Assembly: GCA_018434325.1 (NCBI GenBank)
Contig: JAHDPO010000029.1
Span: 22,784 to 86,783, forward strand
DNA length: 64,000 bases
Reading direction: 5' to 3'
Source: Clostridia bacterium
GTDB lineage: Bacteria > Bacillota > Peptococcia > DRI-13 > UBA5745
A model generated the notes under the pieces. It had not been told where the DNA came from. It worked only from the letters and a program-made list of their open reading frames with translations, and searched no databases. The translations under genes were made by a program, and so were the position numbers. Of this stretch, positions 5,305 through 60,092 are shown in pieces (position 1 is the stretch's first letter; the number at the start of each line of letters is the position of its first letter).

Positions 5305-5512
5305 ATGCTTAGGGCGCGGATGTTCCTACGGACTCAACCCTGCGGACTCAATCTGCTATCCAGAGATACTAAGGGCGCAGATGTTCCGCTATCCGTAGAT
5401 GCTTAGGGCGCAGATGTTCCTACGGACTCAACCCTGCGGACTCAATCTGCTATCCAGAGATGCTTAGGGCGCGGATGTTCCGCTATACGAAGATACTAAG
5501 GGCGCGGATGTT
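5270..5512 (+). repeat. Tandem composite repeat (family R2): five 33-nt cores CCGCTATCCGTAGATGCTTAGGGCGCGGATGTT plus 28-nt modules, forming a 94-nt higher-order unit duplicated in tandem
   Basis: Cores at 5292-5324, 5353-5385, 5386-5418, 5447-5479 and 5480-5512. The 94-nt units 5325-5418 and 5419-5512 are near-identical. There are no unique spacers. The same family occurs at 47264-47372. Confidence 0.9.
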
Positions 5513-9531: not shown

Positions 9532-9536
9532 ATGGT

Positions 9537-10448: not shown

Positions 10449-10489
10449 TGAATTGGTCTTGGATGACGTGGTGGAAGCGGGGGATAGTT

Positions 10490-30176: not shown

Positions 30177-30314
30177 TAAATTCTGTTAACATTTGAATAA
30201 TTGCGGGAAGATTTATAATATTTTAAGTTGTCAGCTAAGGGTCAAATAATTAAACTTTAAACAGAACCGGGTTCCTGCTTAAAAATGTTAATCAGTCAGA
30301 CGGTGAAGGGAGGC

Positions 30315-32251: not shown

Positions 32252-32262
32252 AGGTTAAAAGC

Positions 32263-34216: not shown

Positions 34217-34254
34217 AAAACAAAACGAATAAAATTATACGAGGAGGTAGTCAA

Positions 34255-45382: not shown

Positions 45383-46354
45383 TTATTTTTTTGGGGTAAA
45401 CTCCACATTGCCGGAGGTAATAACCTCATGAGCTTCCGTCACAGCCACATAGCTGATGAACTCACCGGATTCCCGGACCAATTCCTCTACCAGCTTTGTC
45501 CCGGCTTCCAGGCCCAGCATGAAAAAGGCCGTGGAAAGAAAATCCGTGTAGGCGCCGTTGGAGGAGAGGATGGATACGCTCTGGAGGGTGAGAGGCTTAG
45601 GCTCCCCCGTAAAGGGATCCAGCAAGTGGTGGTAAATACGTCCGTCTTTGCGGAAGGAATGCTCATACCACGAGGAAGTGGCTATCCCCATATCCCGCAT
45701 GGAAACAGTACCTATATAGGTGTCCGTGTCTTCCGGGTCAATGAGGGCAATACGCCAGGGATTATCTGCCTCGCCGCCGCCTTCGCTGTCCTGCCGGCCG
45801 CCAATGAGGTACAGGTTGCCTCCAAAGTCGATTACGGCGTTTTGGATACCTTCCCGCTGCAGCAGGGAGGCGACCAATCCTAGGGCATAGCCTTTGCCGG
45901 AGGCTCCCGGATCAAGAACGATGCCCGGGACATCCAGCCGCACCGACGAGCGGGTGGCATCAAGATGGATATGTTCATAACCTACGCGCTTGCGGGCTTC
46001 GGCTATCTCCTCCTGTGAGGGCACCCGGGGATCGGCGGCCAGGAAATCCCACAGCCGGATCAGAGGGCCTACAGTAGGGTCAAAAGCGCCCTTGGTGCGG
46101 CGGCAGAACATCAGGTTTAAGGCCAGAAAATCCGCCAGCATGGGGGAAATGGGATAATCTCTGCCGGGAACATAGCCGGCGCAGAGGCGGGATAGCTCCG
46201 AGGCCGGGTCATACATGCTCAGGGTGGCTTCTACCTCCAGGGCCAGCTTCTGGCCCTGATCCAAAAGAGCATCGGCCTTTTCCCGGGTTTCGGCCTCCAG
46301 CCTGATCCGGCACAAGGTATCGTAGGCAAAGAACCTGCGCTCGCCTGCTATCAC
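45383..46354 (-). CDS. apbE: FAD:protein FMN transferase (ApbE family) without signal peptide or lipobox
   Basis: ApbE strings FGGNLYLIG, TSSWYEHSF..GRIYHHLLDPFTGEP and TDFLSTAFFMLG. The likely GTG start at 46354 overlaps the upstream stop (GTGA); the track ATG is at 46420. Confidence 0.85.
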   Translation of the reverse strand: MIAGERRFFAYDTLCRIRLEAETREKADALLDQGQKLALEVEATLSMYDPASELSRLCAGYVPGRDYPISPMLADFLALNLMFCRRTKGAFDPTVGPLIRLWDFLAADPRVPSQEEIAEARKRVGYEHIHLDATRSSVRLDVPGIVLDPGASGKGYALGLVASLLQREGIQNAVIDFGGNLYLIGGRQDSEGGGEADNPWRIALIDPEDTDTYIGTVSMRDMGIATSSWYEHSFRKDGRIYHHLLDPFTGEPKPLTLQSVSILSSNGAYTDFLSTAFFMLGLEAGTKLVEELVRESGEFISYVAVTEAHEVITSGNVEFTPKK

Positions 46355-47238
46355 GCCAGGCGCCCATCCTGCATGGCTTCTGTCCGGATACGCTCGGCCA
46401 GACGCAGATAGCGATCCCACTCGGCGGAATGCTTGCGTTTTTCGGTATCCACCGTCCAGGGCAAGCCGGAAATGTCGGTGAAGTTCTGGGTGAGCAGAAC
46501 CCGTTGCTCAAGGAGATCAAATACGGAATTAAAGCCGTCGGGATAGTCCGACTCGTAGGAAACGCTGTCGTACTTGCTCATACGGTAGTATTTTTTCAGC
46601 CGTTCATCGGTGATCTCTTCAGGGGTATCCGCAAGAATCTCATTATAGAAACAACGCAAAATGCGGCCGTTTTCCACAACAACCTGGAGCCAGGCCGTGA
46701 TGCCGTCTTCGTATCTTTCCGAAAGGCCATAGTAATACTTGTTATTGGGTCTATCCAGCAGCGCGCCGATCTTGGCTGCCAAGGGCAGCAGGGAACGCTT
46801 CACGCTGTTGGAAGCGCCGGTGGCCATATCAAAATCGCCGGTCAGCCGGTTTTCCCGCAGCATCTGCCCCTCCACAGTGGTAAAGCCGTTATCCAGCACA
46901 TGGAGGGTTTGGGCGGTGCGCTCCTTGGTAGCCTGGAAGAAGCAGTATTCGCTGCGCCGTTTGGACGTATTCTGATACATCCGGGCATAGTAGGCCGGCG
47001 AGGTGTATTCGTTGAATTCCACATGAACCAACCGTCCCTCGGCGCGCACCACTTCCAGAATACCGTGATAACCCGGATCCGTGGCAAAATGGGGGGCAAA
47101 GAAGTTTTCTTCACGGAAATAGTCGCCTTTAATGAGTCCGGCAGGGGGCTGCACGGTCCAAAAGAGCTTTTCCAGTACATTTACGGTACGCTCTACGCCT
47201 TCCAAAGGCTTTTTGCCAGTCCAAGTCTTGTTTTCCAT
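46351..47238 (-). CDS. Uncharacterized cytoplasmic protein with FMN_bind-like domain and candidate flavinylation motif (paralog P1)
   Basis: 295 aa with no signal peptide or TM segment. WTVQPPAGLIKGDYF box. GILEVVRAEGRLVHVEFNE followed by FDMATGASNSV (a D-x-x-[ST]-G-A-[ST]-like motif). Second GITAWLQVVVENGRILRCFYNEI module. Confidence 0.7.
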   Translation of the reverse strand: MENKTWTGKKPLEGVERTVNVLEKLFWTVQPPAGLIKGDYFREENFFAPHFATDPGYHGILEVVRAEGRLVHVEFNEYTSPAYYARMYQNTSKRRSEYCFFQATKERTAQTLHVLDNGFTTVEGQMLRENRLTGDFDMATGASNSVKRSLLPLAAKIGALLDRPNNKYYYGLSERYEDGITAWLQVVVENGRILRCFYNEILADTPEEITDERLKKYYRMSKYDSVSYESDYPDGFNSVFDLLEQRVLLTQNFTDISGLPWTVDTEKRKHSAEWDRYLRLAERIRTEAMQDGRLA

Positions 47239-47263
47239 CGATCAGTACGCTCCTTCACATCTG

Positions 47264-47372
47264 AACATCTGCGCCCTTAATATCTTCGGATAGCGGATAC
47301 ATCTGCGCCCTTAGTTTCTACGGATAGCAGATTAAATCCGTAGGATTGAGTCCGTAGGACATCTGCGCCTTT
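47264..47372 (-). repeat. Family R2 composite repeat, second locus (one 94-nt unit plus a partial core), same orientation relative to the mRNA as at 5270-5512
   Basis: The reverse complement reads AAGGCGCAGATGT + CCTACGGACTCAATCCTACGGATTTAAT + two 33-nt cores. It abuts and overlaps the stop codon of P2. Confidence 0.88.
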
Positions 47373-48300
47373 AGTCGACGAGCACGCCGTCCTTTTTCAT
47401 TTCTGCCAGAACCACTTTGGCCATGCGCAGATAATTGGTCCAGGTGGGATACATCGGCCGCTCGCTCATATCCAGCTCTTTTTTCTCCGGATTGGGATCG
47501 TCCCACAGAGGACCTAAATCCTTGCCTGTAGCATGGGGCAGGCCGGTGAGATCCAACATATCCTGGGTGGCGCAGACCTTGAGGTTTAAGTTGTCCATCT
47601 GCGTGCGGTAGCCAACTAAAAAGGCATGGCGGTCAAAGCCGGGGGGGAAGGGATCCTCGTAGGTGGGGCAATCGTATTTGCTCTGACGGTAATACTGCTT
47701 CAGCTCCGGATGGACGATCTGCTCCGGTTCATCGGCAAAAATTTCATCGAAGCGGCAGCTGACGATTTTGCCGTTTTCCACGACCACTTTGAGCCAGCCG
47801 GTAAGGCCGTAGCCATAATCCTCACTGTAGCTGTAAATGGTTTGAGCCGAGGGCTTATCCAGCTTTTCCTGGAGCTGGGCGGCGATCTTCAGCAGTTTTT
47901 TTACGCTGCCGGAGGCGCTGGCCAGCATATCGAATTCGCCGGCCAGGCTCTGCTTTGCCATCATCTGGGCTTCCACCAGCTCCATGCCCATGGTCAGCGT
48001 GGCCTGAGCCTTCTGCATGCGCTCCTTGGTGTACTGCCAGAAGCTGTAGCTGCTGCGGCGCTTGGAAATGCCTTGATACAGGTGGTTGTAATAGCTTTCA
48101 GCCGTGATCTCGTTGAGCTCGATGAACACCAGCTTGTCGTCGTTTTTGATTACCTCTACGATGCCCAGGTGGCCGGGATCGGCGGGAAATTGGCCTTCTA
48201 CGCCTGCATAATAGGGCGGAAACCGTTCCTCGATGCGGTAATATTCGCCTTTTACCAGCCCTTTAGGGGGCTGCACAGTCCATTGCGGTATGGTTACCAT
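47371..48300 (-). CDS. Uncharacterized cytoplasmic protein with FMN_bind-like domain (paralog P2)
   Basis: 309 aa. WTVQPPKGLVKGEYY box. GIVEVIKNDDKLVFIELNE followed by FDMLASASGSV. GLTGWLKVVVENGKIVSCRFDEI module. C-terminal W..YLRMAKVV. Confidence 0.7.
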   Translation of the reverse strand: MVTIPQWTVQPPKGLVKGEYYRIEERFPPYYAGVEGQFPADPGHLGIVEVIKNDDKLVFIELNEITAESYYNHLYQGISKRRSSYSFWQYTKERMQKAQATLTMGMELVEAQMMAKQSLAGEFDMLASASGSVKKLLKIAAQLQEKLDKPSAQTIYSYSEDYGYGLTGWLKVVVENGKIVSCRFDEIFADEPEQIVHPELKQYYRQSKYDCPTYEDPFPPGFDRHAFLVGYRTQMDNLNLKVCATQDMLDLTGLPHATGKDLGPLWDDPNPEKKELDMSERPMYPTWTNYLRMAKVVLAEMKKDGVLVD

Positions 48301-48314
48301 GATCTTTGTCTCCT

Positions 48315-49307
48315 TTATTTGAGAATGCCGTCCTTAACCATTTCGTCATGAACGACTTTGGCCATGCGCAAGTAATTGTTCCAGACCGGGGAGCGGGGAC
48401 GCTCCACGCTGCGAGCCGTGGCGTCGGTGTTGGAGATCAGAGGCGTATCGTCCTTATGGGGCTTATCCCAAACCACGCCCATATCCGGGCCTTCTGCGCA
48501 GGGCAGGCCGGCGATGTCGAACATATCCTGAGTCTGGCAGACCCTGAGATTGAGCTGATCGCTGAGTTCCTTGAAGCAAACCAGCCAGGCATGGCGGTCC
48601 CAGCCTGTGGGGAAGGGATCTTCATAAGTGGAGGATTCGTATTTGCTCTGGCGGTAGAACTGCTTGAGGTCATCATAGACGATCTCGGCGGTATGGTCGG
48701 CAAAGATTTCGTCGTAGAAGCAGCGGACGATCTTGCCATCTTCCACTACTACCTGCAACCAGCCGGTAAGGCCATAGCCAAAGTCCTCCACATAGCCGTA
48801 GTACAGCTGTTTCTTGTGGTTGGGATCCTTAATCTGAGCGTCCACTTCCTTGGTGAGGCCGATCATACTCTTCATGGAGAAAGAGGCTCCGTGGAGCAGG
48901 TCAAACTCTCCGGAGAGATCCTGTTTGGCCAGGATCTGGTCTTCCACATGCTTAAAGCCATTGGCCAAAACCGTGCCGTAGGCTACGCTGCGGCGCTTGT
49001 CATGGAAATCCTGAAAGAATTGAAACTCTGTCCGGCGTTTGCTGAGGCCCTGGAAATGCCGCACATAGTAATTATCCATAGTATTCTCATTGAATTCGGC
49101 AAAGACGATCTCGCCGTCTTTCACGGCCACATCCAGCGTGCCTTTGTGGCCCTTGGCGCCCCAGCGGCCGCTGTAATACAGCTCCCCGTGGTAATAATCG
49201 CCTTTCACCAGTCCTTTATAAGGAGGCTGAGCCGTCCATTGGATCAGCTCGCTTTCATTGTCTTCATGCCAGGGGCCGCAGCCCAGCCAGCGGGTTTTGT
49301 CTGTCAT
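48315..49307 (-). CDS. Uncharacterized cytoplasmic protein with FMN_bind-like domain (paralog P3)
   Basis: 330 aa. WTAQPPYKGLVKGDYY box. GTLDVAVKDGEIVFAEFNE followed by FDLLHGASFSM. GLTGWLQVVVEDGKIVRCFYDEI module. C-terminal W..YLRMAKVV. Confidence 0.7.
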   Translation of the reverse strand: MTDKTRWLGCGPWHEDNESELIQWTAQPPYKGLVKGDYYHGELYYSGRWGAKGHKGTLDVAVKDGEIVFAEFNENTMDNYYVRHFQGLSKRRTEFQFFQDFHDKRRSVAYGTVLANGFKHVEDQILAKQDLSGEFDLLHGASFSMKSMIGLTKEVDAQIKDPNHKKQLYYGYVEDFGYGLTGWLQVVVEDGKIVRCFYDEIFADHTAEIVYDDLKQFYRQSKYESSTYEDPFPTGWDRHAWLVCFKELSDQLNLRVCQTQDMFDIAGLPCAEGPDMGVVWDKPHKDDTPLISNTDATARSVERPRSPVWNNYLRMAKVVHDEMVKDGILK

Positions 49308-49339
49308 AGGTCATTATCCTCCGTCGCGTATTATTTAGT

Positions 49340-50323
49340 TTATTCTTCGATGCCGGCCGCTTCCTTACGCAGCTCTTCTGCCCGGAAGCAAGCACAAAAA
49401 TGGTTATCGCCAAAGTCCTGGAGCGTCGGGTCCTGACCGGTGCAATAAGGGGCGGCATACAGGCAGCGCTTGGCAAAACGGCAGCCCGGTTCCGGGTTAA
49501 TCGGACTGGTCAGCTCGCCGGTAAGCTTGACCCGCTGCATCTTATGGTGAGCCCGGGGCTCCGGAATGGCGGAAAGCAACGCCTGGGAATAAGGATGCAG
49601 CGTATTGCGGAACAGCTCGTCGGAAGCAGAGGTTTCCACCAGCTGCCCCAGATACATAACGGCGATTTTATCGGAAAAATATTTGACTACAGAAAGGTCA
49701 TGGGTGATGAACAGATAGGTAAGACCGAATTCCGCCTGCAAATCTTTGAGCAGGTTCAGCACCTGGGCCTGAATGGAAACATCCAGGGAGGAAACGGGCT
49801 CGTCGCACATGATAAACTGCGGGGTCAGGGACAGGGCCCGGGCAATGCCCACCCGCTGCCGGCGGCCGCCATCCAGCTCATGGGGATAAGAGTTTTCCAG
49901 ACGCTGGCTGAGACCTACCACATCCATGAGCTCCAGCACTCGCTTATCCAGCTCCGCCCTCGAGGAGACCATCTTGTGGATAATCAGGGGCTCGCCGATG
50001 ATTTCGCTGATGGACATGCGGGGATTGAGGGAGGAGAAGGGGTCCTGGAAGATGATCTGCATCTGGCGGCGCAAGTCATGCATTTGTTGGGCGTCGGCCT
50101 TGCAGATATCCTGGCCGTTAAAGAGAATCTCGCCGCTGGTGGCGGAATGGAGCCCCAGAATCAGCCGGCCGATGGTGCTCTTGCCGCAGCCGGACTCGCC
50201 CACCAGGCCCAGGGTTTCGCCTTTGCGGATGGAGAAGTTGACATCATCTACGGCGTGGAGAGTACCCCGGTTGGTCTTAAAATATTTTTTCAAGTGTTTA
50301 ACTTCTAAAATATTATCGGCCAC
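49340..50323 (-). CDS. Opp/Dpp-type ABC ATPase (OppF-like), system 2
   Basis: Walker [10 protein letters not shown], signature LDGGRRQR and a C-terminal four-Cys extension. Confidence 0.88.
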   Translation of the reverse strand: MADNILEVKHLKKYFKTNRGTLHAVDDVNFSIRKGETLGLVGESGCGKSTIGRLILGLHSATSGEILFNGQDICKADAQQMHDLRRQMQIIFQDPFSSLNPRMSISEIIGEPLIIHKMVSSRAELDKRVLELMDVVGLSQRLENSYPHELDGGRRQRVGIARALSLTPQFIMCDEPVSSLDVSIQAQVLNLLKDLQAEFGLTYLFITHDLSVVKYFSDKIAVMYLGQLVETSASDELFRNTLHPYSQALLSAIPEPRAHHKMQRVKLTGELTSPINPEPGCRFAKRCLYAAPYCTGQDPTLQDFGDNHFCACFRAEELRKEAAGIEE

Positions 50324-51326
50324 GCTTAATCACCTCCATCAGGGTTTCGTCGGGCTGTTCCCAGCCTAAAGCAAAACAGCGCAGCTCATGGGTCGCTTCT
50401 CCGGGAATGCGGGTTACGCCGGGTTTTTTGCTGTGGCATTCCGCCCGGGCATAGGGACAGCGGGGGCTGAAGTTGCAGCCGGCGGGCAATTCCGTCGGGT
50501 CCGGCATCTGTCCTTCAATGGGAGTAAGCTTGGTGCTTTCCATGCTCAGGGTTGGTATGGAGCCAAAGAGACCGATGGTATAAGGGTGGGCCGGATGGTC
50601 AAAGACCTCCGGTATGGTGCCCTGCTCTACGATCTCCCCGGAATACATAATGGCGACCCGGTCGCAGACCTGGGCTACCACGCCCAGATCATGAGTGATC
50701 AGGAGCAGGGAGGTGTGCAGCTTTTCCTTGAGATCGTTCATCAGCTCCAGCACCTGGGCCTGAATGGTCACATCCAAAGCGGTAGTCGGTTCATCCGCAA
50801 GGATAATTTGCGGCGAGCAGGCCACGCTCATGGCGATGACTACCCGCTGCTTCATGCCGCCGGAGAATTGATGAGGGTATTCCTCATAGCGCTCTTTGGG
50901 GATGCCCACCATCTCCAGCATTTCCTCGGCTTTGCGGCGAGCTTCCTCCTTAGAGCAGTTCTCATGGAGCTGAATGACCTCGGCAATTTGAAAGCCTACG
51001 GAATAAACGGGATTTAAGCTGGTCATGGGATCCTGAAAGATCATGGAGATCTTGTTGCCCCGTACGGAGCGCAGGAGGGATTTCTTTGTTTTGAGCAGAT
51101 CTACCCCGTCAAAAAAGATTTCTCCACCCATAATTTTGCCTGGGGGGTCGGCCACCAGTTGCAAAATGCTTAGAGCGGTGGTGGTTTTCCCCGCCCCTGT
51201 TTCTCCCACTAAGCCCAGGCTCTCGCCCTGGCGCAAGTTGAGGCTCAGGCCGTTTACCGCATGGACGATTTCGCCCTGGGTGTGGTATTCTACGGTAAGA
51301 TTTTTGATTTCCAACAGGTTTTCCAT
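50313..51326 (-). CDS. Opp/Dpp-type ABC ATPase (OppD-like), system 2
   Basis: Walker [10 protein letters not shown] and signature [11 protein letters not shown] 51326 lies after GAGGA, which overlaps the upstream stop. Confidence 0.88.
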   Translation of the reverse strand: MENLLEIKNLTVEYHTQGEIVHAVNGLSLNLRQGESLGLVGETGAGKTTTALSILQLVADPPGKIMGGEIFFDGVDLLKTKKSLLRSVRGNKISMIFQDPMTSLNPVYSVGFQIAEVIQLHENCSKEEARRKAEEMLEMVGIPKERYEEYPHQFSGGMKQRVVIAMSVACSPQIILADEPTTALDVTIQAQVLELMNDLKEKLHTSLLLITHDLGVVAQVCDRVAIMYSGEIVEQGTIPEVFDHPAHPYTIGLFGSIPTLSMESTKLTPIEGQMPDPTELPAGCNFSPRCPYARAECHSKKPGVTRIPGEATHELRCFALGWEQPDETLMEVIKRGR

Positions 51327-51336
51327 ATGTATGTCC

Positions 51337-52239
51337 TCAGTTCTTGAGCTTGGGGTCCAATGCGTCGCGCAGGCCGTCCCCAAGCAGGTTCAGGGAAAGG
51401 ATGGTCAGCATGATAGCGATGCCGGGAAAGGTGCAGACCCACCAGGCAACACGGATATACTGGCGTCCATTGCTGAGCATGGAGCCCCATTCAGGTGTAG
51501 GGGGCTGAATGCCCAACCCCAGAAAACTGAGGCTGGCAATGGAGAGCACGGAGCCTGCAATGCACATGGTTGCCTGCACGATCATCGGGGCCATGGCATT
51601 GGGCAGGATGTGCTTGAATATGATGCGTCTGTCATTGGCGCCGATAGCCTGGGCCGCTTCAATGAATTCCTCGTTGCGAATGGTGATCACCGAGGAACGG
51701 ATAATGCGGGCAAAAGGCGGAATATTGGAGACCGCAATGGCGATCAGCAAATTGCGGATGCTGGAGCCCAGGGTGGCTACGATGGCAATGGCCAGCAGAG
51801 TGCTGGGGATGGCCAGAAACATATCCATTATCCGCATGATAATATTATCTGCGGTGCGGCTGCCGTAGCCGGCTATAGCGCCCAGCAGGCCGCCGATGAC
51901 GGCGGCGATCAGGATAGTAGCAAAGGCTACGGGCAGAGAAATCCGGGCGCCAAAGACGATGCGGGCCAAAATATCGCGGCCTACTTCATCGGTGCCCAGC
52001 CAGTGCTCACTGGAAGGAGGGTTGAGGCGGATGGAAGCGTTTTGCCTCACCGCCATGGCCTCGTAGTCAAAAAGCAAGTTGGCAAATATAGCAGCCAGCA
52101 CAATAACGCTGAGAATGACCAGGCCTGCCACTGCCAGCCGGTTTTGCTTAAGACGTTCCCAAACCATGACGAATTGGGACTTTTTCTTGCGCCTTTTCAC
52201 TATTGTAGTTGTTGTTATTGTTGTCATGAAATTCACCAT
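51337..52239 (-). CDS. Opp/Dpp-type ABC permease (OppC-like), system 2
   Basis: BPD_transp_1-type membrane protein, similar to the system 1 OppC-like protein. Confidence 0.85.
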   Translation of the reverse strand: MVNFMTTITTTTIVKRRKKKSQFVMVWERLKQNRLAVAGLVILSVIVLAAIFANLLFDYEAMAVRQNASIRLNPPSSEHWLGTDEVGRDILARIVFGARISLPVAFATILIAAVIGGLLGAIAGYGSRTADNIIMRIMDMFLAIPSTLLAIAIVATLGSSIRNLLIAIAVSNIPPFARIIRSSVITIRNEEFIEAAQAIGANDRRIIFKHILPNAMAPMIVQATMCIAGSVLSIASLSFLGLGIQPPTPEWGSMLSNGRQYIRVAWWVCTFPGIAIMLTILSLNLLGDGLRDALDPKLKN

Positions 52240-52244
52240 GGCTC

Positions 52245-53171
52245 CTATTTGTACTGCGCTTTGACCCGGGGGTCAAAAAAGGCATATAAAATGTCAATAA
52301 TGAGGTTAATCACCGTGAAGGAGACCGCCATGACCAACACCAGTCCCAGCACCAGCGGCGTATCCTTGAGCTTGATAGCATCCACCAGCAGCCGGCCGAT
52401 GCCCGGCCAGGAAAATACGGTTTCTACCAGCACGGCGCCGCCGAGAGCAAAGCCGAATTGCAAACCGGCGCTGGTGATGATGGGAATCATCGCGTTGCGA
52501 AGCGCATGGCGGAATACAACCACACTCTCCCTCAGGCCCTTGGCCCGGGCTGTGCGGATGTAATCCTGCCGGATGATTTCCAGCATGGAAGACCGGGTCA
52601 TACGGGTGATGGTGGCCAGGGAGTTGGCGCTGAGGGTAATAGCCGGCAGAACCAGAGATTTGAATCCCGCATCTCCGGAGGCAGGGAAAATACCCAGGTT
52701 GGCGGCCAGCAGCAGAATCAGCATAATCCCCAGCCAGAAATTAGGCATGGATACACCCAATAGCGCTACCAGCATGGAAGCGTTGTCCGTTAAAGAATAT
52801 TGCTTGACGGCGGAAACAATACCCAGGGGCATGCCCACCGCAATGGCAAAGAACAACGCCGCACCGGCCAGCCGCACCGTAGCGGGGAAGCGGGCGAAGA
52901 TTTCTGTGGTGACCGGGCGTTTGGTGGAATAGGTATTGCCCAAATCGCCTTGCAGCGCATTAAATACATATTTGGCATAACGAATGAGGAAGGGGTCATT
53001 CAAACCTAATTCTTCAGAAATCTGGTCGTGAGCCTCCTGGGAGTAATTATCCCCCAGGTAAAGCTGGACGGGATCGCCGGGCGTAAGACTCATAATAGTA
53101 AACACGATGAAGCTGACGCCTAAAAGAACGGGAATGAGCATAAATAGCCGTTTCAGGATAAATTTGTACAT
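52245..53171 (-). CDS. Opp/Dpp-type ABC permease (OppB-like), system 2
   Basis: MYKFILKRLFMLIPVLLGV N-terminus. ATG 53171 lies after GGAGA. Confidence 0.85.
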   Translation of the reverse strand: MYKFILKRLFMLIPVLLGVSFIVFTIMSLTPGDPVQLYLGDNYSQEAHDQISEELGLNDPFLIRYAKYVFNALQGDLGNTYSTKRPVTTEIFARFPATVRLAGAALFFAIAVGMPLGIVSAVKQYSLTDNASMLVALLGVSMPNFWLGIMLILLLAANLGIFPASGDAGFKSLVLPAITLSANSLATITRMTRSSMLEIIRQDYIRTARAKGLRESVVVFRHALRNAMIPIITSAGLQFGFALGGAVLVETVFSWPGIGRLLVDAIKLKDTPLVLGLVLVMAVSFTVINLIIDILYAFFDPRVKAQYK

Positions 53172-53271
53172 GGGCAAATCTCCAGATGTTTTGGACGTCG
53201 GATGAACTCCCCCCTGAGCCAAAGCTCAGGGGGAGAGATCATAAGATCGACAGAGTGATTGGTGGCAGGGC

Positions 53272-54828
53272 TTATTCGCCGATATGGGTACCGTAGATGT
53301 AATGGGTTTTGCCGGGATAGAGCTTAAAGCCATTGACGTCGGACTGCATACCGACATTGAGGTATTCGACAGCAAGAGGATACAGGGGTACGTCTTCAGC
53401 CACAATGGCCTGAATCTGCTTATACAGATCCTTGGCATGCTCGGAATCGGTGGTGGCCAAAGCTTCATCCAGCATCTGATCGATCTCCGGCACTACGTAG
53501 AAAGTACGGTTGCCGGAAGCGCCCAGGGAATCCTCGGAGTACATGGCACGCAGCATGGAGTCGGGATCGATGGAGGTCTTGGACATGAAGAAGAGCTGAT
53601 GCTCACCCTTGGAGGTAGCGGAGGTAAAGGTGGCGCCGTCCATGGATTTGATCTCCACAGTGATGCCGATCTGGCGCAGGGCCTCCTGAAGGGCCACGGA
53701 AGCATCTTTGTAAATCTGAGCATCCTGGACATAGAGAGTGCAGGAGAAACCGTTGGGATAACCTGCTTCAGCCAACAAGGCTTTGCCTTTTTCTACGTCG
53801 TAATCATAGGTAACCAGATCCGGTGCATAGCCCATGAGATAAGGACTCATCATGGTATTGCTGGCGTCTGTCGCATTGCCGTTGAAAGTGAGGGTAATGA
53901 AATCCTGTTTGTTGATAGCATGAGCCATGGCCTGGCGAACTTCTTTTTTGGAGAGAATGGGATCTTTCACGTTGGCGCCCACATACCAAACGGTGCCGGA
54001 GGTGGTGGTTGCCATCTTGAGTTTGGGATTTGCTTCTACGGTAGCGAAGTCGGTGGCGGACAGGTCGTAAGCGATATCCACTTCACCGGTCTCCAAAGCT
54101 ACAGTTCTGCTGATGCTTTCGGGAATGGTTTTGAATACCAGCGTTTTGATGGGGGAGGCGCCTGCCCAGTAATCTTCGAAGGCAGCCAGGGTGATGTCGC
54201 CGCCCAATTCCCAGGAGACGAACTTGAAGGGGCCGCAGCCTACGGGTGCAGCGTTGAAATCAGAAGTGCTTTCAGCGGCAGCTTTGGAAACGATGGAAGC
54301 GGCGTCCAAAGTGAGCCGGTAAAGCAGAACGCTGCAGGGCTCGGAGGTGACGATCTCCACGGTATTCTCATCGATAACGTTGATTTCGCTGATGATCAGG
54401 TAGTTGTAATTGACGCCGGCGCTGGCAATGCAGCGCTCCAGGGAATACTTGACGTCTTCGGCGGTCATGGTGTTGCCGTCATGGAATTTTACGCCCTTGC
54501 GCAGGTGGAATACGGTGGTCGTAGCATCCTTGATATCCCAGGATTCGGCCAGGGTAGGCACCAGGTTCATGTCTGCATCCAGCTCGACCAGGCGGTCAAA
54601 AATCTGGGTGACGACCCGGAAAGTACCGATGGTTGCCTGAATATGGGGATCTACATAGGTAGGTGTTTCCGGAATGGCGACGATTAGTTTGTCCCTGGCA
54701 GGGGTTCCGGCAGAGCCCTGCGGAGAGGTTGCAGCCGGTTGAGTTGCGGCAGTACCGCCGGAGCCGCCACAACCGGCCATTGCCAATACGAAGGCAACGA
54801 TGAGCAGCGAAGTTACGATTTTTTTCAT
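53272..54828 (-). CDS. Family-5 substrate-binding lipoprotein, system 2 (ligand unknown)
   Basis: Lipobox LAMAGCGG and SBP_bac_5-like sequence. ATG 54828 lies after GGAGGA; the track uses TTG 54837. Confidence 0.85.
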   Translation of the reverse strand: MKKIVTSLLIVAFVLAMAGCGGSGGTAATQPAATSPQGSAGTPARDKLIVAIPETPTYVDPHIQATIGTFRVVTQIFDRLVELDADMNLVPTLAESWDIKDATTTVFHLRKGVKFHDGNTMTAEDVKYSLERCIASAGVNYNYLIISEINVIDENTVEIVTSEPCSVLLYRLTLDAASIVSKAAAESTSDFNAAPVGCGPFKFVSWELGGDITLAAFEDYWAGASPIKTLVFKTIPESISRTVALETGEVDIAYDLSATDFATVEANPKLKMATTTSGTVWYVGANVKDPILSKKEVRQAMAHAINKQDFITLTFNGNATDASNTMMSPYLMGYAPDLVTYDYDVEKGKALLAEAGYPNGFSCTLYVQDAQIYKDASVALQEALRQIGITVEIKSMDGATFTSATSKGEHQLFFMSKTSIDPDSMLRAMYSEDSLGASGNRTFYVVPEIDQMLDEALATTDSEHAKDLYKQIQAIVAEDVPLYPLAVEYLNVGMQSDVNGFKLYPGKTHYIYGTHIGE

Positions 54829-54858
54829 TCTTGTCAATCCTCCATGTTGTTAATTAAG

Positions 54859-55167
54859 GAGGGCACTGAAAAAGTCACAACCCGTATAAGGTTAAAATCA
54901 AATTCGCTGCTGCTAACTGCTCAAAAATCGTAGTTGTGTGGAGTTGCCAGACGAATTTAGCCTGAAATCGGCAGTATTTTGCTCCAAAATCGTAGCTGTG
55001 TGCAGTTATCAGCCTCAAAATGGTCCTGTAACCGGATAAAACTCCACACAACTCGCAAATTTGAGCAGTTAGCCCCTGCTTTTAACCTAAATTCGATGTC
55101 CGTTGCAACACAACTCCAATTTTTGAGCACCTCACCCCGATCCGCCACCAACTTTTTCAGTGCCCTC
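54859..55167. repeat. Nested inverted-repeat structure: 17-bp perfect outer IR enclosing four copies (two direct, two inverted) of a ~28-nt motif TGCTCAAAAATCGTAGTTGTGTGGAGTT
   Basis: Outer IR GAGGGCACTGAAAAAGT at 54859-54875 pairs with 55151-55167. Inner motifs lie at 54913-54945, 54980-55007, 55040-55072 and 55107-55129. Confidence 0.85.
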
Positions 55168-55290
55168 AGTTTAAAGTGTGCCGCTCCTTCAAAACAGGGG
55201 GTAACTCACGGCTGTGACACTAAATACAGCTAAATATAGCCAAATAAAGCCGATGATCAGTGCCCTCCTTTAAACCTGCAATTTTGCGCA
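55168..55290 (+). repeat. MITE-like element, copy 4 (left terminal repeat truncated)
   Basis: AGTTTAAAGTGTGCCGCTCCTTC...GTGACACTAAATACAGCTAAATATAGCC...CCTTTAAACCTGCAATTTTGCGCA. Confidence 0.8.
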
Positions 55291-55384
55291 GCTTGGATTT
55301 TGATAGTGTGGAACAGAGGCCCAAGGTGGCGATGTGTTAAGATAATCAGGGGGCTGCCGCATAAGTGTGTGGTATGCTCCTTTT

Positions 55385-55504
55385 CACTTGTTGATCAGTG
55401 AACGCTTGGGTCATGAGGACATAAAAATGACTTTACAGACCTACTCTCACCTATACCCGAACAAGCGGGCAGAGGCTGAAGAGAAGCTGCAAAGTCTATA
55501 TTAG
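55385..55504 (+). pseudogene. C-terminal remnant of a tyrosine recombinase/integrase
   Basis: Translates to LLISERLGHEDIKMTLQTYSHLYPNKRAEAEEKLQSLY*, the typical LGH...T..Y.H catalytic-Tyr tail. There is no upstream ORF: an in-frame stop lies at 55343. Confidence 0.75.
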
Positions 55505-55542
55505 GCTCTTCCCGTATACTTTTTGCGTACTTTCAGGAGATA

Positions 55543-55581
55543 GAAAACCCCGCAACCACACTGTGCATGCGGGTTGCGGGG
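55543..55581 (-). terminator. Rho-independent terminator of guaA
   Basis: The minus strand reads CCCCGCAACC-loop-GGTTGCGGGG followed by TTTTCT. Confidence 0.75.
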
Positions 55582-55591
55582 CGATTAATCA

Positions 55592-56938
55592 TTACTCCCA
55601 CTCAATGGTTGCCGGCGGCTTCGGCGAAAGGTCGTAGAGCACCCGGTTGACCCCCGGCACCTCCGCCAAAATCCGGTTGGTGATTTTTTGCAGCAGGGCC
55701 CAATCAATTTGAGGGACCTCCGCCGTCATGGCGTCTACCGTATTGACCGCCCTCAAAATAACCGGATACTCGAAGGTGCGGGCTCCATCCTTCATGCCGA
55801 CGGATTTGAAATTCGGCACCACCGTAAAGTACTGCCAGACTTGGCGGTCAAGGCCGGCTGCGGCAAATTCCTCCCGCAAGATGGCGTCGGCTTCCCGCAG
55901 GGAATGAAGCCTGTCGGCGGTGATGGCGCCCAGGCAGCGGACGCCTAAACCGGGGCCGGGGAAGGGCTGGCGGTAAACCATGGTTTCCGGCAGGCCAAGC
56001 TCCAGGCCGCAGGCCCGGACTTCGTCTTTAAATAAGAATTTTATTGGCTCCACCAATTGGAATTTCATATCTTCCGGCAGGCCGCCTACATTATGGTGGC
56101 TTTTGACGACTTTTGCGGTCTTGGTGCCGCTTTCGGCAATATCGGGATAAATGGTGCCCTGGGCCAGAAAGTCCATCTTGCCCAGTTTGGCGGCTTCTTC
56201 TTCAAAAAGCCGGATAAATTCGCTGCCGATGATTTTGCGCTTTTCTTCGGGATCGGCTACGCCGGAGAGTTTGCCGAGAAAACGGTCGGAAGCATCTACA
56301 TAAACAAGATTGGCCTCTAATTGCTGCCGGAAGACTTCCACCACTTGCTCGCTTTCGCCTTTGCGCATCAGACCGTGGTTAACATGGACGCAATGGAGCT
56401 GTTTGCCGATGGCCTTAATGAGCAAAGCGGCCACCACCGAAGAATCCACGCCGCCGGAAAGAGCCAGCAGAACCTGCTTGTCCCCCACTTGCTGGCGAAT
56501 CAGGGCTATCTGGTCGGCAATGAAGTTGGGCATGTTCCAATTGGCCTCAGCCTTGCAATCTTCAAAGATAAAGGGGGAGAGCAGGGCGGCTAAGTCCCGG
56601 TCATCAGCCGGCAGAGAATCGGCTTGGCGATAGGAGGCGGCGCTATCCTTAGCATTGCCGGCATCGATGCAGCCGGTACAGGGGTAGTCCACCAGTAAAA
56701 GGGGAATATCCAGAGAGAATAGCCAAGGCTCCACGGTGATGGGCTGGCCGTCTACTACGTTGTTTTTGCCGCCGTTGACGATGATGCCCCGCAGGTTTGG
56801 CATGGCTTCGATCTCCGGACGGGAGATGTCATGGGGATAAATTTCGCTGTATACGCCCAGGGTACGGATGGAGCGGGCAAGACGGACATTTTCTTCGCTG
56901 CCTAAGTCCAGGATCAGGATCAAGTCTTGTTTCATCAT
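55592..56938 (-). CDS. guaA: GMP synthase-like protein: intact ATP-pyrophosphatase/dimerisation domains, truncated and degenerate glutamine amidotransferase domain
   Basis: SGGVDSSV PP-loop, KSHHNVGGLP and a C-terminal PPATIEWE. Only 448 aa. The N-terminal ~90 aa align to GATase, but LGICYGMQ is replaced by LLVDYPCTG and the His/Glu part is deleted. Confidence 0.85.
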   Translation of the reverse strand: MMKQDLILILDLGSEENVRLARSIRTLGVYSEIYPHDISRPEIEAMPNLRGIIVNGGKNNVVDGQPITVEPWLFSLDIPLLLVDYPCTGCIDAGNAKDSAASYRQADSLPADDRDLAALLSPFIFEDCKAEANWNMPNFIADQIALIRQQVGDKQVLLALSGGVDSSVVAALLIKAIGKQLHCVHVNHGLMRKGESEQVVEVFRQQLEANLVYVDASDRFLGKLSGVADPEEKRKIIGSEFIRLFEEEAAKLGKMDFLAQGTIYPDIAESGTKTAKVVKSHHNVGGLPEDMKFQLVEPIKFLFKDEVRACGLELGLPETMVYRQPFPGPGLGVRCLGAITADRLHSLREADAILREEFAAAGLDRQVWQYFTVVPNFKSVGMKDGARTFEYPVILRAVNTVDAMTAEVPQIDWALLQKITNRILAEVPGVNRVLYDLSPKPPATIEWE

Positions 56939-56970
56939 AAGTAGGGCTCCTTTTCGTCAGGTTATGATTT

Positions 56971-56999
56971 ATTATACATGGCTTGGAGCCTTTTTTCAA
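56971..56999 (-). promoter_or_regulatory. Consensus sigma-A promoter TTGAAA-17 nt-TATAAT for guaA
   Basis: Read on the minus strand. The -10 box lies 32 nt upstream of the ATG, and AAGGAG lies in between. Confidence 0.7.
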
Positions 57000-57030
57000 T
57001 TTCTTCGGCGCTTGCAGCCGGGGCAGGGTA

Positions 57031-57256: not shown

Positions 57257-58681
57257 TCAGATGCCGATGGCTACCGCAATAACCAGCATGATCATTTGCG
57301 CCACATAGATGATGCCGAAAAGAGGGATAAAAAACCGCAGCCATTTGTCATAGGGGATGCCGGAGAGGCCGCAGACGATGGTGATGCTGCAGGTGGGCCA
57401 CAGCAGATTGGATAAGCCGTCGCCGAACTGGAAGGCCATAATCACTGTTTCCCTGGTGAGCCCCAGGATATCGCCGATGGGGGCCATAATCGGAATAGTA
57501 ATGGCCGCCTGACCGGATCCGGAAGGAACAATAAAGTTGAAGAGAGTCTGAATAACCAGCATGCCCTGGGCGGCCAGCATCGGAGGCAGGCCCTCCAGGT
57601 TGGAAACCATGCCGTGGATAATGGTATCGACGATCATGCCTTCCTGGAGCAGCACCAGAGTGGCCCGGGCAAGACCGGTGACTAAAGCGCCGAAAGCTAC
57701 GGACTTAGCGCCTTCCAGAAACTCCTTGGCAATTTTGTCGGTATTCCAGCCGTCGATGATAGCGGCCAAAATCCCCATCAGGACAAAGACGGCGGTCAGC
57801 TGGATCATGCCCCAGCCCTGCTTGATGGAGCCGTAAATAATCCAGACAAGGGCCAGCACGACTATGCCTAAAATAGCCTTATGCTTGCCGGTCATGCTGA
57901 CGCTGATCAGCTCATCATGGTCGGTGACGGCTTCTAGCTTGATGCCCAGCTCATCAACGGAAACGAGGCTGGCGGAGGGATCCTTTTTCAGCTTGGCGCC
58001 GTAGCGCAAGATCCAGAAGATAGCGATGGAACAAAACAGGATGAAGCAGACAACCCTGAAGGGGGTATTGCTGTACAGAGGAACTCCGGCAATGCTTTGG
58101 GCAACAACTACGGTAAAGGGATTCATGATGGAGCCCATGAAGCCGATAAAGGCGCCTAAAGCGACAATGGCCGTGCCGAAGAGGGCGTCGTAGCCCAAGG
58201 CTATGCCCAGGCCGACGAAAATAGGATAGAAGCCGTTGTATTCGTTGAGCATACCAAAAAGTGAGCTGCCCAGAGCGAAAACCAGGAACATAATAGGTAC
58301 CAGTATTTTGTCCTTGCCTTTGAATTTCTTGAGCAGATTGGCCAGCAAAGCATTAAATGCACCGGTCTTGATAATCATGCTGAAAGCGCCGTTAACCAGG
58401 AAAATCAGCATGACAACGTCGGCGCCGGCGATTAAGCCTTTATGGAAAGAACCGAAGAAATCAATAATTCCGGCTTGCTTTGCTCCGCTGGGATCAATAG
58501 AGGCGTAAGAGCCGGGTACCACCAGATTTCGCATGGTGCCGTTGACGTCTACTTTTTCATATTGATATTGTCCGGGAGGCAATACCCAGGTTAAAATAGC
58601 GGCAAGTAAGGCCAGAAAGAACAAAAGGACAAAGGTATGGGGAACTTTTATCCGTTTTTTTTCTTTTTTCTCAACACTCAT
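57257..58681 (-). CDS. YfcC/DcuC-family membrane transporter
   Basis: 474 aa. The N-terminus KVPHTFVLLFFLALLAAILTWVLPPGQY is typical of the YfcC family, followed by multiple TM segments. 4-nt overlap with the upstream amidohydrolase. Confidence 0.8.
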   Translation of the reverse strand: MSVEKKEKKRIKVPHTFVLLFFLALLAAILTWVLPPGQYQYEKVDVNGTMRNLVVPGSYASIDPSGAKQAGIIDFFGSFHKGLIAGADVVMLIFLVNGAFSMIIKTGAFNALLANLLKKFKGKDKILVPIMFLVFALGSSLFGMLNEYNGFYPIFVGLGIALGYDALFGTAIVALGAFIGFMGSIMNPFTVVVAQSIAGVPLYSNTPFRVVCFILFCSIAIFWILRYGAKLKKDPSASLVSVDELGIKLEAVTDHDELISVSMTGKHKAILGIVVLALVWIIYGSIKQGWGMIQLTAVFVLMGILAAIIDGWNTDKIAKEFLEGAKSVAFGALVTGLARATLVLLQEGMIVDTIIHGMVSNLEGLPPMLAAQGMLVIQTLFNFIVPSGSGQAAITIPIMAPIGDILGLTRETVIMAFQFGDGLSNLLWPTCSITIVCGLSGIPYDKWLRFFIPLFGIIYVAQMIMLVIAVAIGI

Positions 58682-59892
58682 GATTTTGCTCCTCTCAAAT
58701 AATCATAGGCTACTTTAGCGTGAACCGCACTCATCACCGGAAGGGCGTCTTCGTCGATGTTGAATTGACCGTTGTGTAAAGGGACAGTGGGGGTTTTGGC
58801 TGGATTGGCTACCCCTGCCTGATAGAAGCAGCCGGGGACATGCTCCAGAAAAATACCGAAATCTTCCGTGCCCATGGTGGGGTGAGCCACAGGAAAGAGC
58901 TTATCCTCGCCCAGTAATTCGGCAATTGAGCTGCAGGCCAGCCGCGTCATGGCCTCGTCGTTGACTACACCGGGATAGCTGGTACGGATTTCGATTTCTG
59001 CTGTGGCGCCGTGGGCCTGGACAATGCCTTCCACGATGCGGCGGAATGCTGCTACGGTCTTTTGGCGCATTTCCGGGCCCAGCGTACGGATGATGCCGCT
59101 CATTTTTACCTCTTCGGCAATGGCGTTGCGCTGAGTGCCACCATGGAAGGTGCCGACGGTGATGACGGCGGAGTCCAGGGGATTGGTTTCCCGGCTGACG
59201 TAAAGCTGCAGGGCCCCGACGACCTGAGCGGCAACGGCGATGGCGTCAATGCCCAGATGGGGGCTGGCCCCGTGGCTGCCGAAGCCTTTGACGGTAATGT
59301 CAAAAGGATTGGAAGCGGCATAGGATTTGCCCGGGCGGGCTCCCATATATCCCACGGGGATGCCGGGGCTCACATGGGCGCCGAACATGGCGGTGACTTG
59401 CGGGTTTTCCAGGGCGCCTTCGGCAATCATTTGCTCAGCGCCGCCGTCGCCTTCCTCGTCGGGCTGAAAGAAAAACTTCACGTTTCCCGGCAGATCCTGC
59501 CGGCAGGCAGCCAGGATTTTTGCTGTTCCCAGGAGTGCAGCGGTGTGGCAGTCATGGCCGCAGGCGTGCATCAGGCCGGGCCGCCGTGAGGCGTAGGATA
59601 CTCCTGTTTGTTCTTCGATTTTCAAGGCGTCCATATCGGCCCGCAAGCCAACGGTAGAAATTGCACCCGGATTGACGTCAACGCCGGCTCCGCCTCCTTC
59701 AAGGAGCCCCAAAACACCGGTGCCGGCAATTCTTTGGGTTTTGATACCTAAGTTTTGCAAATACTCCTCCACCAGCTTCTGCGTTTCTACTTCGGTTTTT
59801 CCTATTTCCGGGTACTGGTGGATCCTCCTGCGCAAATCAATAATCTCATCTTTGATACTCAGGGCTGCTTCCATAAAATCAAGCTGTTGCAT
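58678..59892 (-). CDS. M20-family amidohydrolase (N-acyl-amino acid / hippurate hydrolase-like)
   Basis: IHQYPEIG, RADMDAL, ACGHDCH and FQPDEEG metal-binding motifs. ATG 59892 lies after GGAGG. Confidence 0.85.
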   Translation of the reverse strand: MQQLDFMEAALSIKDEIIDLRRRIHQYPEIGKTEVETQKLVEEYLQNLGIKTQRIAGTGVLGLLEGGGAGVDVNPGAISTVGLRADMDALKIEEQTGVSYASRRPGLMHACGHDCHTAALLGTAKILAACRQDLPGNVKFFFQPDEEGDGGAEQMIAEGALENPQVTAMFGAHVSPGIPVGYMGARPGKSYAASNPFDITVKGFGSHGASPHLGIDAIAVAAQVVGALQLYVSRETNPLDSAVITVGTFHGGTQRNAIAEEVKMSGIIRTLGPEMRQKTVAAFRRIVEGIVQAHGATAEIEIRTSYPGVVNDEAMTRLACSSIAELLGEDKLFPVAHPTMGTEDFGIFLEHVPGCFYQAGVANPAKTPTVPLHNGQFNIDEDALPVMSAVHAKVAYDYLRGAKS

Positions 59893-59933
59893 AATAATCG
59901 CCTCCTTTCTTAATTGTAATTGTAATTTACAGA

Positions 59934-59951
59934 TTGCAAGTTTTATGCCTA
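59934..59951 (-). promoter_or_regulatory. Sigma-54 (-24/-12) promoter AGGCAT-AAAAC-TTGCA
   Basis: The minus strand reads ATAGGCATAAAACTTGCAAT, with GG and GC in the canonical spacing. It lies ~45 nt upstream of the amidohydrolase ATG, and a divergent sigma-54 activator is adjacent. Confidence 0.7.
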
Positions 59952-60012
59952 TGGAAGGGCAAAAGGAAAAAAGTCTGCAAAGTCTGATAGAACAGGAAAA
60001 AAACATCTGAAA

Positions 60013-60041
60013 GTTGAAGAAAGGTGAAATTTTCTGTATAA
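60013..60041 (+). promoter_or_regulatory. Sigma-A-like promoter TTGAAG-17 nt-TATAAT for the activator gene
   Basis: Read directly. Confidence 0.55.
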
Positions 60042-60092
60042 TAGAAAAAACCTAGGTTTAGCCTAGGGCGAAAGATGAAAAAGGAGAAGCCT

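Follow-up and report, generated by a model that had tools for sequence, protein, structure and literature searches.

What an importer of small solutes has to do with protein flavinylation is the question raised by one locus in a 64,000-nt stretch of DNA from a Clostridia bacterium (contig JAHDPO010000029.1, assembly GCA_018434325.1), referred to hereafter, at its full length, as the window. Nine open reading frames (ORFs) lie head to tail on its minus strand between positions 45383 and 54828, with the same coordinates as in an earlier reading of this DNA (the original prediction), and encode a family-5 ATP-binding cassette (ABC) importer, three paralogs designated P3, P2 and P1, and ApbE, a putative transferase of flavin mononucleotide (FMN) from flavin adenine dinucleotide (FAD) to protein. 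We consider it probable that the nine genes form a single transcription unit, joining the importer to a cytoplasmic covalent-flavin redox module that acts on the imported solute.

P1-P3 are remote homologs of FMN_bind proteins

The genes for P3 (330 aa, 48315..49307), P2 (309 aa, 47371..48300) and P1 (295 aa, 46351..47238), all on the minus strand, encode paralogs sharing 45-52% identity, none of which matched any Pfam-A or NCBIfam model. Since the FMN_bind model PF04205 is blind to P1-P3, their kinship with FMN_bind had to be shown by other means. A family profile built from 56 diverse members aligned with the PDB chains 3o6u (E 0.0034) and 2kzx (E 0.025), both of which score as PF04205 members, and the alignment sets the family consensus DllagASnS on DviTGATsS, where DVITGAT is the motif of 3o6u. 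This structure, 3O6U, has been described as a flavinylated FMN-bind1 protein (PMC11334425). An hmmsearch with the profile against 1.84 billion representatives retrieved only 152 clusters (50% identity) at E <= 0.001, with a weak tail of multi-FMN_bind proteins (P0203, at E 5.5e-16, P0209, P0226, P0244 and P0267) that align repeat by repeat with the P profile at E-values from 5.5e-16 to 1e-4.

Structural comparison points in the same direction. The AlphaFold2 model of P2 (predicted local distance difference test, pLDDT, 93.3; predicted TM-score, pTM, 0.91) consists of two successive halves, each with three strands followed by helices, and a Foldseek search of the PDB with this model returned 3o6u as the sole meaningful match (probability 1.0, target-normalised TM-score 0.67). 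Alignment of the N-terminal half of P2 with its C-terminal half by hhalign (probability 80.7, E 1.3e-5) indicates an internal duplication. P1-P3 are remote FMN_bind homologs, each a tandem of two FMN_bind-like halves. The earlier description of these proteins as FMN_bind-like is therefore supported by profile, fold, duplication and the position of a conserved motif, with the qualification that PF04205 itself does not detect them; no match to an unrelated characterised family was obtained. The source annotations of their relatives read "hypothetical protein", except for two secreted members annotated as "FMN-binding domain-containing protein".

A candidate flavinylation motif in the first half

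The motif D-x-x-x-[G/S]-A-S is present in the first half of each P protein only, as DMATGAS in P1 (46810..46830, candidate acceptor Ser143), DMLASAS in P2 (47911..47931, Ser130) and DLLHGAS in P3 (48882..48902, Ser142), all on the minus strand. In the second half, W-x-N-Y replaces G-A-S-x-S, and no Ser or Thr is conserved there. As in FMN_bind, the motif marks the beginning of the final helix in its half: in the AlphaFold2 model of P2 it occupies residues 124-130, at the start of a helix that spans residues 127-148. Ala129, Ser130 and Ser132 (P2 numbering) are invariant in the 56 diverse family members, and the candidate acceptor Ser is kept in every cytoplasmic member examined. Measured against the definition D-x-x-[S/T]-G-A-[S/T] given in a review (PMC12052999), the P1 motif is a full match, and ASAS, SSAS and NASAS variants are typical of the whole P2 clade. 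Beyond the motif, a set of polar residues is likewise invariant (E64, Y70, Y71, K80, E110, E186, D190, S207, K208, Y209, Q246 and Y290).

A signal-less ApbE

The last gene of the series (45383..46354, minus strand) encodes a 323-aa protein of the ApbE/Ftp type, which matches PF02424 with 229.4 bits (7.5e-68; cut-off 25.6) over model positions 2-258 of 266 and has Treponema pallidum Ftp (4xdt, 1.8e-37) as its best PDB match. The GxxGKG, DxGGN, TSxxYE and YHHxxDPxTGxP blocks of the FAD/metal site are kept, pairing in the alignment with 4xdt as GASGKG/GAIAKG, DFGGN/DLGGN, TSSWYE/TSGAYE and YHHLLDPFTGEP/YHHIIDPVTGFP. Read from the start codon within GTGA, the protein begins with MIAGERRFFAYDT, which is the first core strand and aligns to mature T. 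pallidum Ftp; the longest possible N-terminus, from a GTG at 46420, is hydrophilic.

The highest Kyte-Doolittle hydropathy over 19 residues is 0.72 in P3, 0.79 in P2, 0.76 in P1 and 1.02 in ApbE, against 2.26 for the N-terminus of the substrate-binding protein (SBP) and 2.7-2.9 for the two permeases. Hydropathy thus reveals no hydrophobic segment in these four proteins, in line with the proposal that they have neither signal peptide nor lipobox nor transmembrane segment. The stop-to-stop frames leave only 1 (P3), 11 (P2) and 1 (P1) additional upstream codons, and no in-frame upstream start can supply a signal peptide to P1-P3 or ApbE. Apart from the permeases, the SBP is the only one of the nine proteins with a hydrophobic N-terminal segment (residues 1-27); its N-terminus, MKKIVTSLLIVAFVLAMAGC, carries the lipobox LAMAGC, confirming it as the only exported component. 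With no hydrophobic segment and a hydrophilic longest N-terminus, this ApbE is predicted to belong to the minority cytosolic subclass known from Klebsiella pneumoniae. The ApbEs that adjoin cytoplasmic P genes in related loci all start a few residues before the first core strand.

Gene layout and cargo of the importer

The importer is complete by Pfam. It comprises a family-5 (Opp/Dpp/Nik-type) substrate-binding lipoprotein (53272..54828; SBP_bac_5, 3e-90), an OppB/NikB-like permease B (52245..53171; BPD_transp_1, 5.8e-45, and BPD_transp_1_N), an OppC/NikC-like permease C (51337..52239; BPD_transp_1, 3.7e-38, and OppC_N), both permeases with transmembrane segments, and two ATPases with ABC_tran and oligo_HPY domains, the OppD-like ATPase D (50313..51326) and the OppF-like ATPase F (49340..50323), all on the minus strand. 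The tight spacing proposed for the nine co-directional genes was recovered from the ORF coordinates, with gaps computed from start codons that have Shine-Dalgarno support. These gaps measure 100 nt between the SBP and permease B genes, 5 nt between the permease genes, 10 nt between permease C and ATPase D, 32 nt between ATPase F and P3, 14 nt between P3 and P2, and 132 nt between P2 and P1; the two ATPase genes overlap by 11 nt, and the P1 stop and ApbE start share GTGA (a 4-nt overlap). Shine-Dalgarno sequences precede the P1, P2 and P3 starts by 9-12 nt (GAAGGAG, AGGAG and GGAGG, respectively), and alternative TTG starts exist for permease B (53222) and ATPase D (51383).

The P2-P1 gap is filled by a repeat insertion, as had been noted, in which the 15-mer TAAGGGCGCAGATGT is present three times (47265..47373, minus strand). 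Five further copies lie in another intergenic region (5309-5511, plus strand), and the eight copies in the 64-kb window compare with 0.13 expected by chance, which identifies this repetitive extragenic palindrome (REP)-like 15-mer as a dispersed intergenic repeat. A consensus scan revealed no convincing terminator inside the operon, with counts at shuffle level.

The closest solved structures to the SBP are 5u4o (ligand unknown), AgaA, HbpA/GsiB and DppA, and the ligands of these nearest relatives are agropinic acid, glutathione or heme, and dipeptides. The protein attains no NCBIfam equivalog cut-off, its best hits scoring far below those for GsiB (221.6 versus 594 bits) and for NikA-type binders (198.8 versus 600); only permease B passes one, marginally, that of the Opp2B "nickel ABC transporter permease" model (351.7 bits, cut-off 350). 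Assignment of a substrate from NCBIfam and PDB neighbours is ambiguous among glutathione, dipeptide, heme, opine and nickel binders. The similarity of the SBP suggests that the imported solute may be peptide-, glutathione- or opine-like. With its SBP_bac_5 lipoprotein, paired permeases and oligo_HPY ATPases, the system has all five components of the Opp/Dpp/Nik (PepT-family) importers, from which it differs in lacking an equivalog-level substrate match and in its linkage to flavinylation genes, a linkage for which our literature search returned no description among Opp/Dpp/Nik systems.

Related clusters in other genomes

Using the window proteins as phmmer queries, we mapped 84 loci gathered by scanning one genome per GTDB species and by contig look-ups. 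The set SBP_bac_5 protein, two permeases, two ATPases, P3, P2, (P1) and ApbE recurs in about ten other loci (L004/L012, L007, L008, L009, L010+L030, L011, L013, L014 and L017), hosted by Oscillospiraceae, other Clostridia, a Flexilinea metagenome-assembled genome and one contig labelled Anaerolineaceae or Sphaerochaeta. An orthologous P3 clade is found in all of these window-like loci, and P1 is transposed to the opposite end of the cluster in several of them. Their flanking genes are not conserved, except for a divergent LysR-type regulator (HTH_1) that adjoins the cluster in 8 of 11, mostly just upstream of the SBP gene or of the transposed P1. The neighbourhood from SBP to ApbE is thus conserved, with homologs co-occurring with ApbE and ABC importers in other genomes.

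A second group of clusters links P and ApbE to a pair of genes resembling class 1B dihydroorotate dehydrogenase (DHODB). These operons, found in Hungatella, Schaedlerella and common gut-metagenome contigs, comprise a two-component system/AraC regulator, a CUT1 ABC importer, P, a signal-less ApbE, a further P, a PyrK-like protein and a DHO_dh-like protein, and genes for the latter two are present in L005, L015-L021, L037, L040, L041, L043, L044, L050 and L051. The DHO_dh-like protein is nearest to class 1B PyrD (1e-36 to 1e-40 against 1ep1_A and 5ue9), with the catalytic Cys retained, although the alignment shows Ser and Tyr at two orotate-binding Asn positions. The PyrK-like protein retains the [2Fe-2S] Cys motif and has no recognisable FAD/NAD Pfam domains. 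In L040 (119-1762) and L050/L051 (9959-11542), as in the proteins P0098 and P0104, a P module is fused to a PyrK-like protein in which the [2Fe-2S] motif reads CGIGACKAC...C, and one possibility is that covalent FMN substitutes for the FAD of PyrK in these fusions. Two overlapping ORFs take the place of a single ApbE gene in L021 (362-1203) and L041 (9358-10337), whereas the near-identical L043 has the gene intact; the split may reflect a frameshift or an assembly error. Hundreds of metagenome contigs carry one of the relatives, the P0061 cluster.

A third group consists of secreted or lipoprotein members, about 45 loci of which have no ApbE within 10 kb. All "solo" homologs carry lipoprotein or signal peptides; they come from Desulfitobacterium, Fusobacterium, Cetobacterium, Acidaminobacter, Paenibacillus, Halolactibacillus, Enterococcus and others. 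The ApbE-less homologs of Desulfitobacterium and Fusobacterium were considered as evidence against a link to ApbE and dropped from that role, both carrying lipoprotein signals. In 14-15 of 25 loci (L001, L024, L027-L029, L031-L033, L039, L046, L049, L052, L055-L057 and L059, mostly at ~8500-10900) the gene of the secreted member directly follows those of a HisKA kinase and a response regulator with AraC output, which suggests a sensing or regulated extracytosolic redox role. The Enterococcus, Vagococcus and Pseudolactococcus loci (L063-L077, 6400-10750) contain a unit of DUF4822, HisKA kinase, OmpR-type regulator and P-like lipoprotein, with this gene order in 14 of the 14 Enterococcus-group loci; in the lipoprotein a short additional motif, DVVTGATQT, precedes the P module, and the motif inside the module has degenerated to G-S-S-T-[TS]. 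Lipoproteins of ~450-480 aa from Ferrimonas, Marinobacter and Mycoplasmatota (L078-L082, L080 and L084, ~9500-10900) join a canonical PF04205 domain, with the motif DAVSGAT, to a P-like module that comes after it and reads DIVAGASNS. The gammaproteobacterial loci (Ferrimonas/Marinobacter) are the exception among the secreted clades in that ApbE adjoins the P-module lipoprotein, and the Ferrimonas ApbE (L078) has a signal peptide when its N-terminus is read.

A neighbour-joining tree places the signal-less clades (P1-like, P2, P3 and the DHODB-linked relatives) apart from the secreted ones, with P1 as the paralog nearest to the secreted relatives, and an adjacent signal-less ApbE goes with the clades that lack a signal peptide. 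The hydrophobicity of the N-terminus has a bimodal distribution over 150 database proteins that are complete at this end (~48 secreted-looking, ~102 not). Most simply, the cytoplasmic branch would descend from a family of flavinylated lipoproteins outside the cytosol, and would need an ApbE of its own because the usual ApbE works outside the membrane.

Proposed mechanism and alternative explanations

The mechanism that we propose begins with the lipoprotein SBP and the Opp/Dpp-type transporter, which would import a small organic solute. In the cytoplasm, the signal-less ApbE would transfer FMN from FAD, in phosphoester linkage, to the motif Ser of each P protein (predicted sites Ser143 in P1, Ser130 in P2 and Ser142 in P3), so that each would be a pseudo-dimer of two FMN_bind-like domains in which the first domain alone is flavinylated. 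P1-P3 are probably a hetero-oligomer, since they have been kept as three distinct orthologous lineages, and may constitute the covalent-flavin redox unit for the imported compound, either acting themselves or wiring electrons to a partner oxidoreductase; in the sister clusters this partner would be the DHODB-like pair, formed by a PyrD-like FMN subunit and a PyrK-like [2Fe-2S] subunit. We infer co-transcription of the nine genes, flavinylation, complex formation and the direction of electron flow from the evidence above, and the action of the module on the imported compound from synteny. The original prediction of a cytoplasmic, covalently flavinylated module is supported by the family searches, by the recurrence of the set in other genomes and by the frames upstream of its genes.

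Several observations weigh against this proposal. PF04205 gives no match to P1-P3 at E <= 0.1 in the Pfam search, and two of the three motifs depart from the canonical form: DLLHGAS of P3 has His at the S/T position, and DMLASAS of P2 has Ala at the S/T and Ser at the G position. The predicted acceptor is Ser, and Thr-to-Ser replacement lowered flavinylation by 10-55%; Ser is nonetheless accepted by ApbE, and a Gly-to-Ala change still left ~50% flavinylation (PMC12052999). No partner that binds NAD(P)H or acts as a catalytic oxidoreductase is encoded in the operon, and the whole 64-kb window contains a homolog of neither gene of the DHODB-like pair. Scans for consensus promoters and terminators yielded shuffle-level counts, with no promoter or terminator confidently found. 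Finally, the secreted relatives adjoin two-component systems rather than transporters or reductases, and the ancestral role may therefore have been sensing or electron shuttling rather than catalysis.

How far P1-P3 would carry out chemistry of their own is the point on which the most serious alternatives turn. The invariant polar residues, together with the ~10 loci that hold no other oxidoreductase, raise the possibility that the P proteins are catalytic themselves, and in the strongest form of this idea P1-P3 would be a cytoplasmic hetero-oligomeric enzyme that reduces or oxidises the imported solute directly, with three ApbE-attached FMNs as sole cofactors. This version strikes us as rather unlikely; were it true, the tandem FMN_bind-like fold would be a catalytic scaffold and not merely an electron wire, and the family would illustrate a general rule, by which a flavinylated protein that moves from outside the cell into the cytoplasm has to be accompanied by an ApbE dedicated to it. 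What the DHODB-linked clusters favour, by contrast, is the wiring of electrons towards an ene-reductase of the dihydroorotate dehydrogenase type. P1-P3 could then be flavinylated electron wires or adaptors only, cytoplasmic counterparts to the multi-flavinylated proteins, feeding an oxidoreductase encoded elsewhere (such as a DHODB-like PyrD/PyrK), which we hold to be possible, if somewhat doubtful. The FMN_bind domains of all characterised enzymes serve in electron transfer, the sister clusters place P beside or fused to a PyrK-like protein with a DHO_dh-like protein whose catalytic Cys is retained, and on one Oscillospiraceae contig a window-like cluster (L014) coexists with another that has the DHODB-like pair (L021). 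Against plain wiring stand the window-like loci, about ten of which keep the nine genes with no oxidoreductase in cis, and the many invariant polar residues outside the motif, more suggestive of a binding or active site than of a simple carrier.

P1-P3 might also be redox- or ligand-sensing accessories that regulate the transporter or its expression, as the conserved units of kinase, response regulator and P protein among secreted members would suggest, together with the LysR, AraC or two-component regulators that adjoin the cytoplasmic clusters (the window itself has no LysR). We judge this improbable: three conserved paralogs and a dedicated modifying enzyme would be a heavy investment for a sensor, Pfam reveals no DNA-binding or signalling domain in P1-P3, and the fusion and operon linkage with PyrK-like and DHO_dh-like proteins favours electron transfer. 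Flavin salvage, in which the importer would bring in FAD, FMN or riboflavin for an ApbE acting as an Ftp-type FAD pyrophosphatase while P1-P3 bind or store flavin, fits an operon without a catalytic partner, and T. pallidum Ftp, the closest solved homolog of the ApbE, belongs to a class that hydrolyses FAD as a Mg-dependent pyrophosphatase (PMC4767422). Protein flavinylation is nevertheless retained by both Ftp classes (PMC4767422), the SBP resembles peptide, opine and glutathione binders, and no FMN riboswitch or other Rfam element lies upstream. The sister clusters, moreover, exchange the transporter (SBP_bac_5 versus CUT1 SBP_bac_1/DUF3502) and add a reductase pair. Because the transporter family varies while P and ApbE are constant, we argue for a generic redox module serving different imports, and regard salvage as very improbable. 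Least credible of all is a chance adjacency of the transporter genes to those for P and ApbE. Operons of the Opp type abound, and the 132-nt repeat-filled gap indicates that the unit tolerates insertions; yet an orthologous SBP (577-1049 bits, compared with 238 for the other Opp-type SBP of the window) travels with P3-P2-P1-ApbE in ~10 loci that span different families, probably different phyla, and that share no conserved flanks. The set also stays together when its order is rearranged, with P1 upstream of the SBP gene, and independent clusters pair P and ApbE with another family of ABC importer.

Comparison with known flavinylation systems

PplA, from the Listeria FmnB/PplA system, typifies the flavinylated lipoproteins of Gram-positive extracellular electron transfer. 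Secreted P-family members share with it, at the level of description, a length of ~300 aa, a lipoprotein signal and a pair of FMN_bind-like domains; P1-P3, on the other hand, have neither lipobox nor signal peptide, and their operon has no Ndh2, EetA/B or Dmk genes. The sister-cluster pair similarly resembles class 1B dihydroorotate dehydrogenase (PyrD/PyrK, 1ep1), from which it differs in the two replaced Asn and in the lack of FAD/NAD Pfam domains in the PyrK-like part, and this pair is itself absent from the window.

Cytoplasmic flavinylation is not new, having been documented for the soluble NADH:fumarate reductase (FRD) of K. pneumoniae, which is served by a cytoplasmic ApbE (PMC12052999), and for Vibrio harveyi acrylate reductase (ARD) and Vibrio ruber cinnamate reductase (Crd), both with cytoplasmic ApbE-dependent FMN_bind (bioRxiv 10.1101/2022.01.20.477176, 10.1101/2023.03.04.531086). 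In the Klebsiella and Vibrio enzymes, as predicted for the window, a transferase with no export signal puts FMN on a cytoplasmic FMN_bind protein; the soluble reductases of Klebsiella and Vibrio depend on this covalent FMN to transfer electrons. Their targets are, however, single canonical PF04205 domains with a Thr acceptor, fused to FAD_binding_2 and OYE-like NADH:flavin domains, whereas those of the window are three stand-alone proteins of ~300 aa from a divergent tandem family that PF04205 does not detect, with a predicted Ser acceptor and a place in an ABC importer operon. FAD_binding_2 and OYE-like domains are absent from all nine window proteins by Pfam. Paired FMN_bind-type domains likewise characterise the FMN-bind2 proteins, with their pseudo-symmetric double domains, and the multi-flavinylated proteins (Huang et al., mSystems 2024; Meheust et al., eLife 2021), although these are secreted or lipidated and flavinylated on every domain, in contrast to the cytoplasmic P1-P3 with their lost second motif.

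The original prediction had set known, extracytosolic ApbE targets against a combination that matched no described pathway. The second part stands, our literature search for the gene combination SBP..P..ApbE having returned nothing that matches, while the first needs qualification in view of the cytoplasmic systems above. What is new here, as judged from sequence comparison, would be a divergent stand-alone tandem family with three paralogs, a predicted Ser acceptor and an ABC-importer operon. The 2021 flavinylation census could not have found the P1-P3 system, because it was based on PF04205 and excluded genes without export signals.

Upstream region and genomic surroundings

Upstream of the SBP gene lies a non-coding region (54838..55591) that is presumably a promoter or regulatory zone. 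Just upstream of the SBP start it contains a perfect 17-nt inverted repeat (54859-54875/55151-55167) and, nested with it, a second perfect one of 14 nt (54856-54869/55257-55270), and between their arms lie units that recur about every 62 nt, not all of them in the same orientation. These repeats (54856-55270) had no match in Rfam and could be an insertion resembling a miniature inverted-repeat transposable element (MITE) or a regulatory array. An Rfam scan of the whole window detected no riboswitch, and no FMN, NiCo or cobalamin element. The LysR of the related loci is absent from the whole window, where the repeat-rich 750-nt region stands in its position, and a search for an AraC or LysR regulator beside the operon found none. 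Comparison of the neighbourhoods (window 54838-57000 with L007 1-3433 and 12912-18601) shows that guaA abuts the window operon, while the 89%-identical relative L007 has V4R, GGDEF and PTS_EIIC-EAL genes in between.

Elsewhere in the window, a second Opp-type ABC operon on the plus strand (within 27195-35856) encodes two permeases, two ATPases and an SBP (34255-35856), with no P or ApbE genes; divergent from it (27195-30176, minus strand) are a 637-aa ORF, possibly a histidine kinase, and an AraC-type response regulator. The region at 57257-62273 holds genes for a DcuC-type carrier and an M20 peptidase (minus strand) and a divergent sigma-54 activator; this neighbouring unit is apparently an inducible catabolic cluster in its own right, with no relation to the nine-gene operon.

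Biological significance

Surveys of flavinylation by ApbE have dealt almost exclusively with proteins outside the cytosol. The locus described here adds to them a rare protein family, with no name in any source examined, together with a dedicated cytoplasmic ApbE, and a recurrent coupling of both to inducible ABC importers in gut and anaerobic-digester Clostridia. Ser-type variants of the motif could serve in flavin-tagging applications. If the proposed biochemistry is correct, the list of ApbE substrates would grow, the family would offer a clean evolutionary case of a modifying enzyme that followed its substrate across the membrane, and the metabolism of imported compounds in Oscillospiraceae and Lachnospiraceae would include an as yet unknown reductive or oxidative step.

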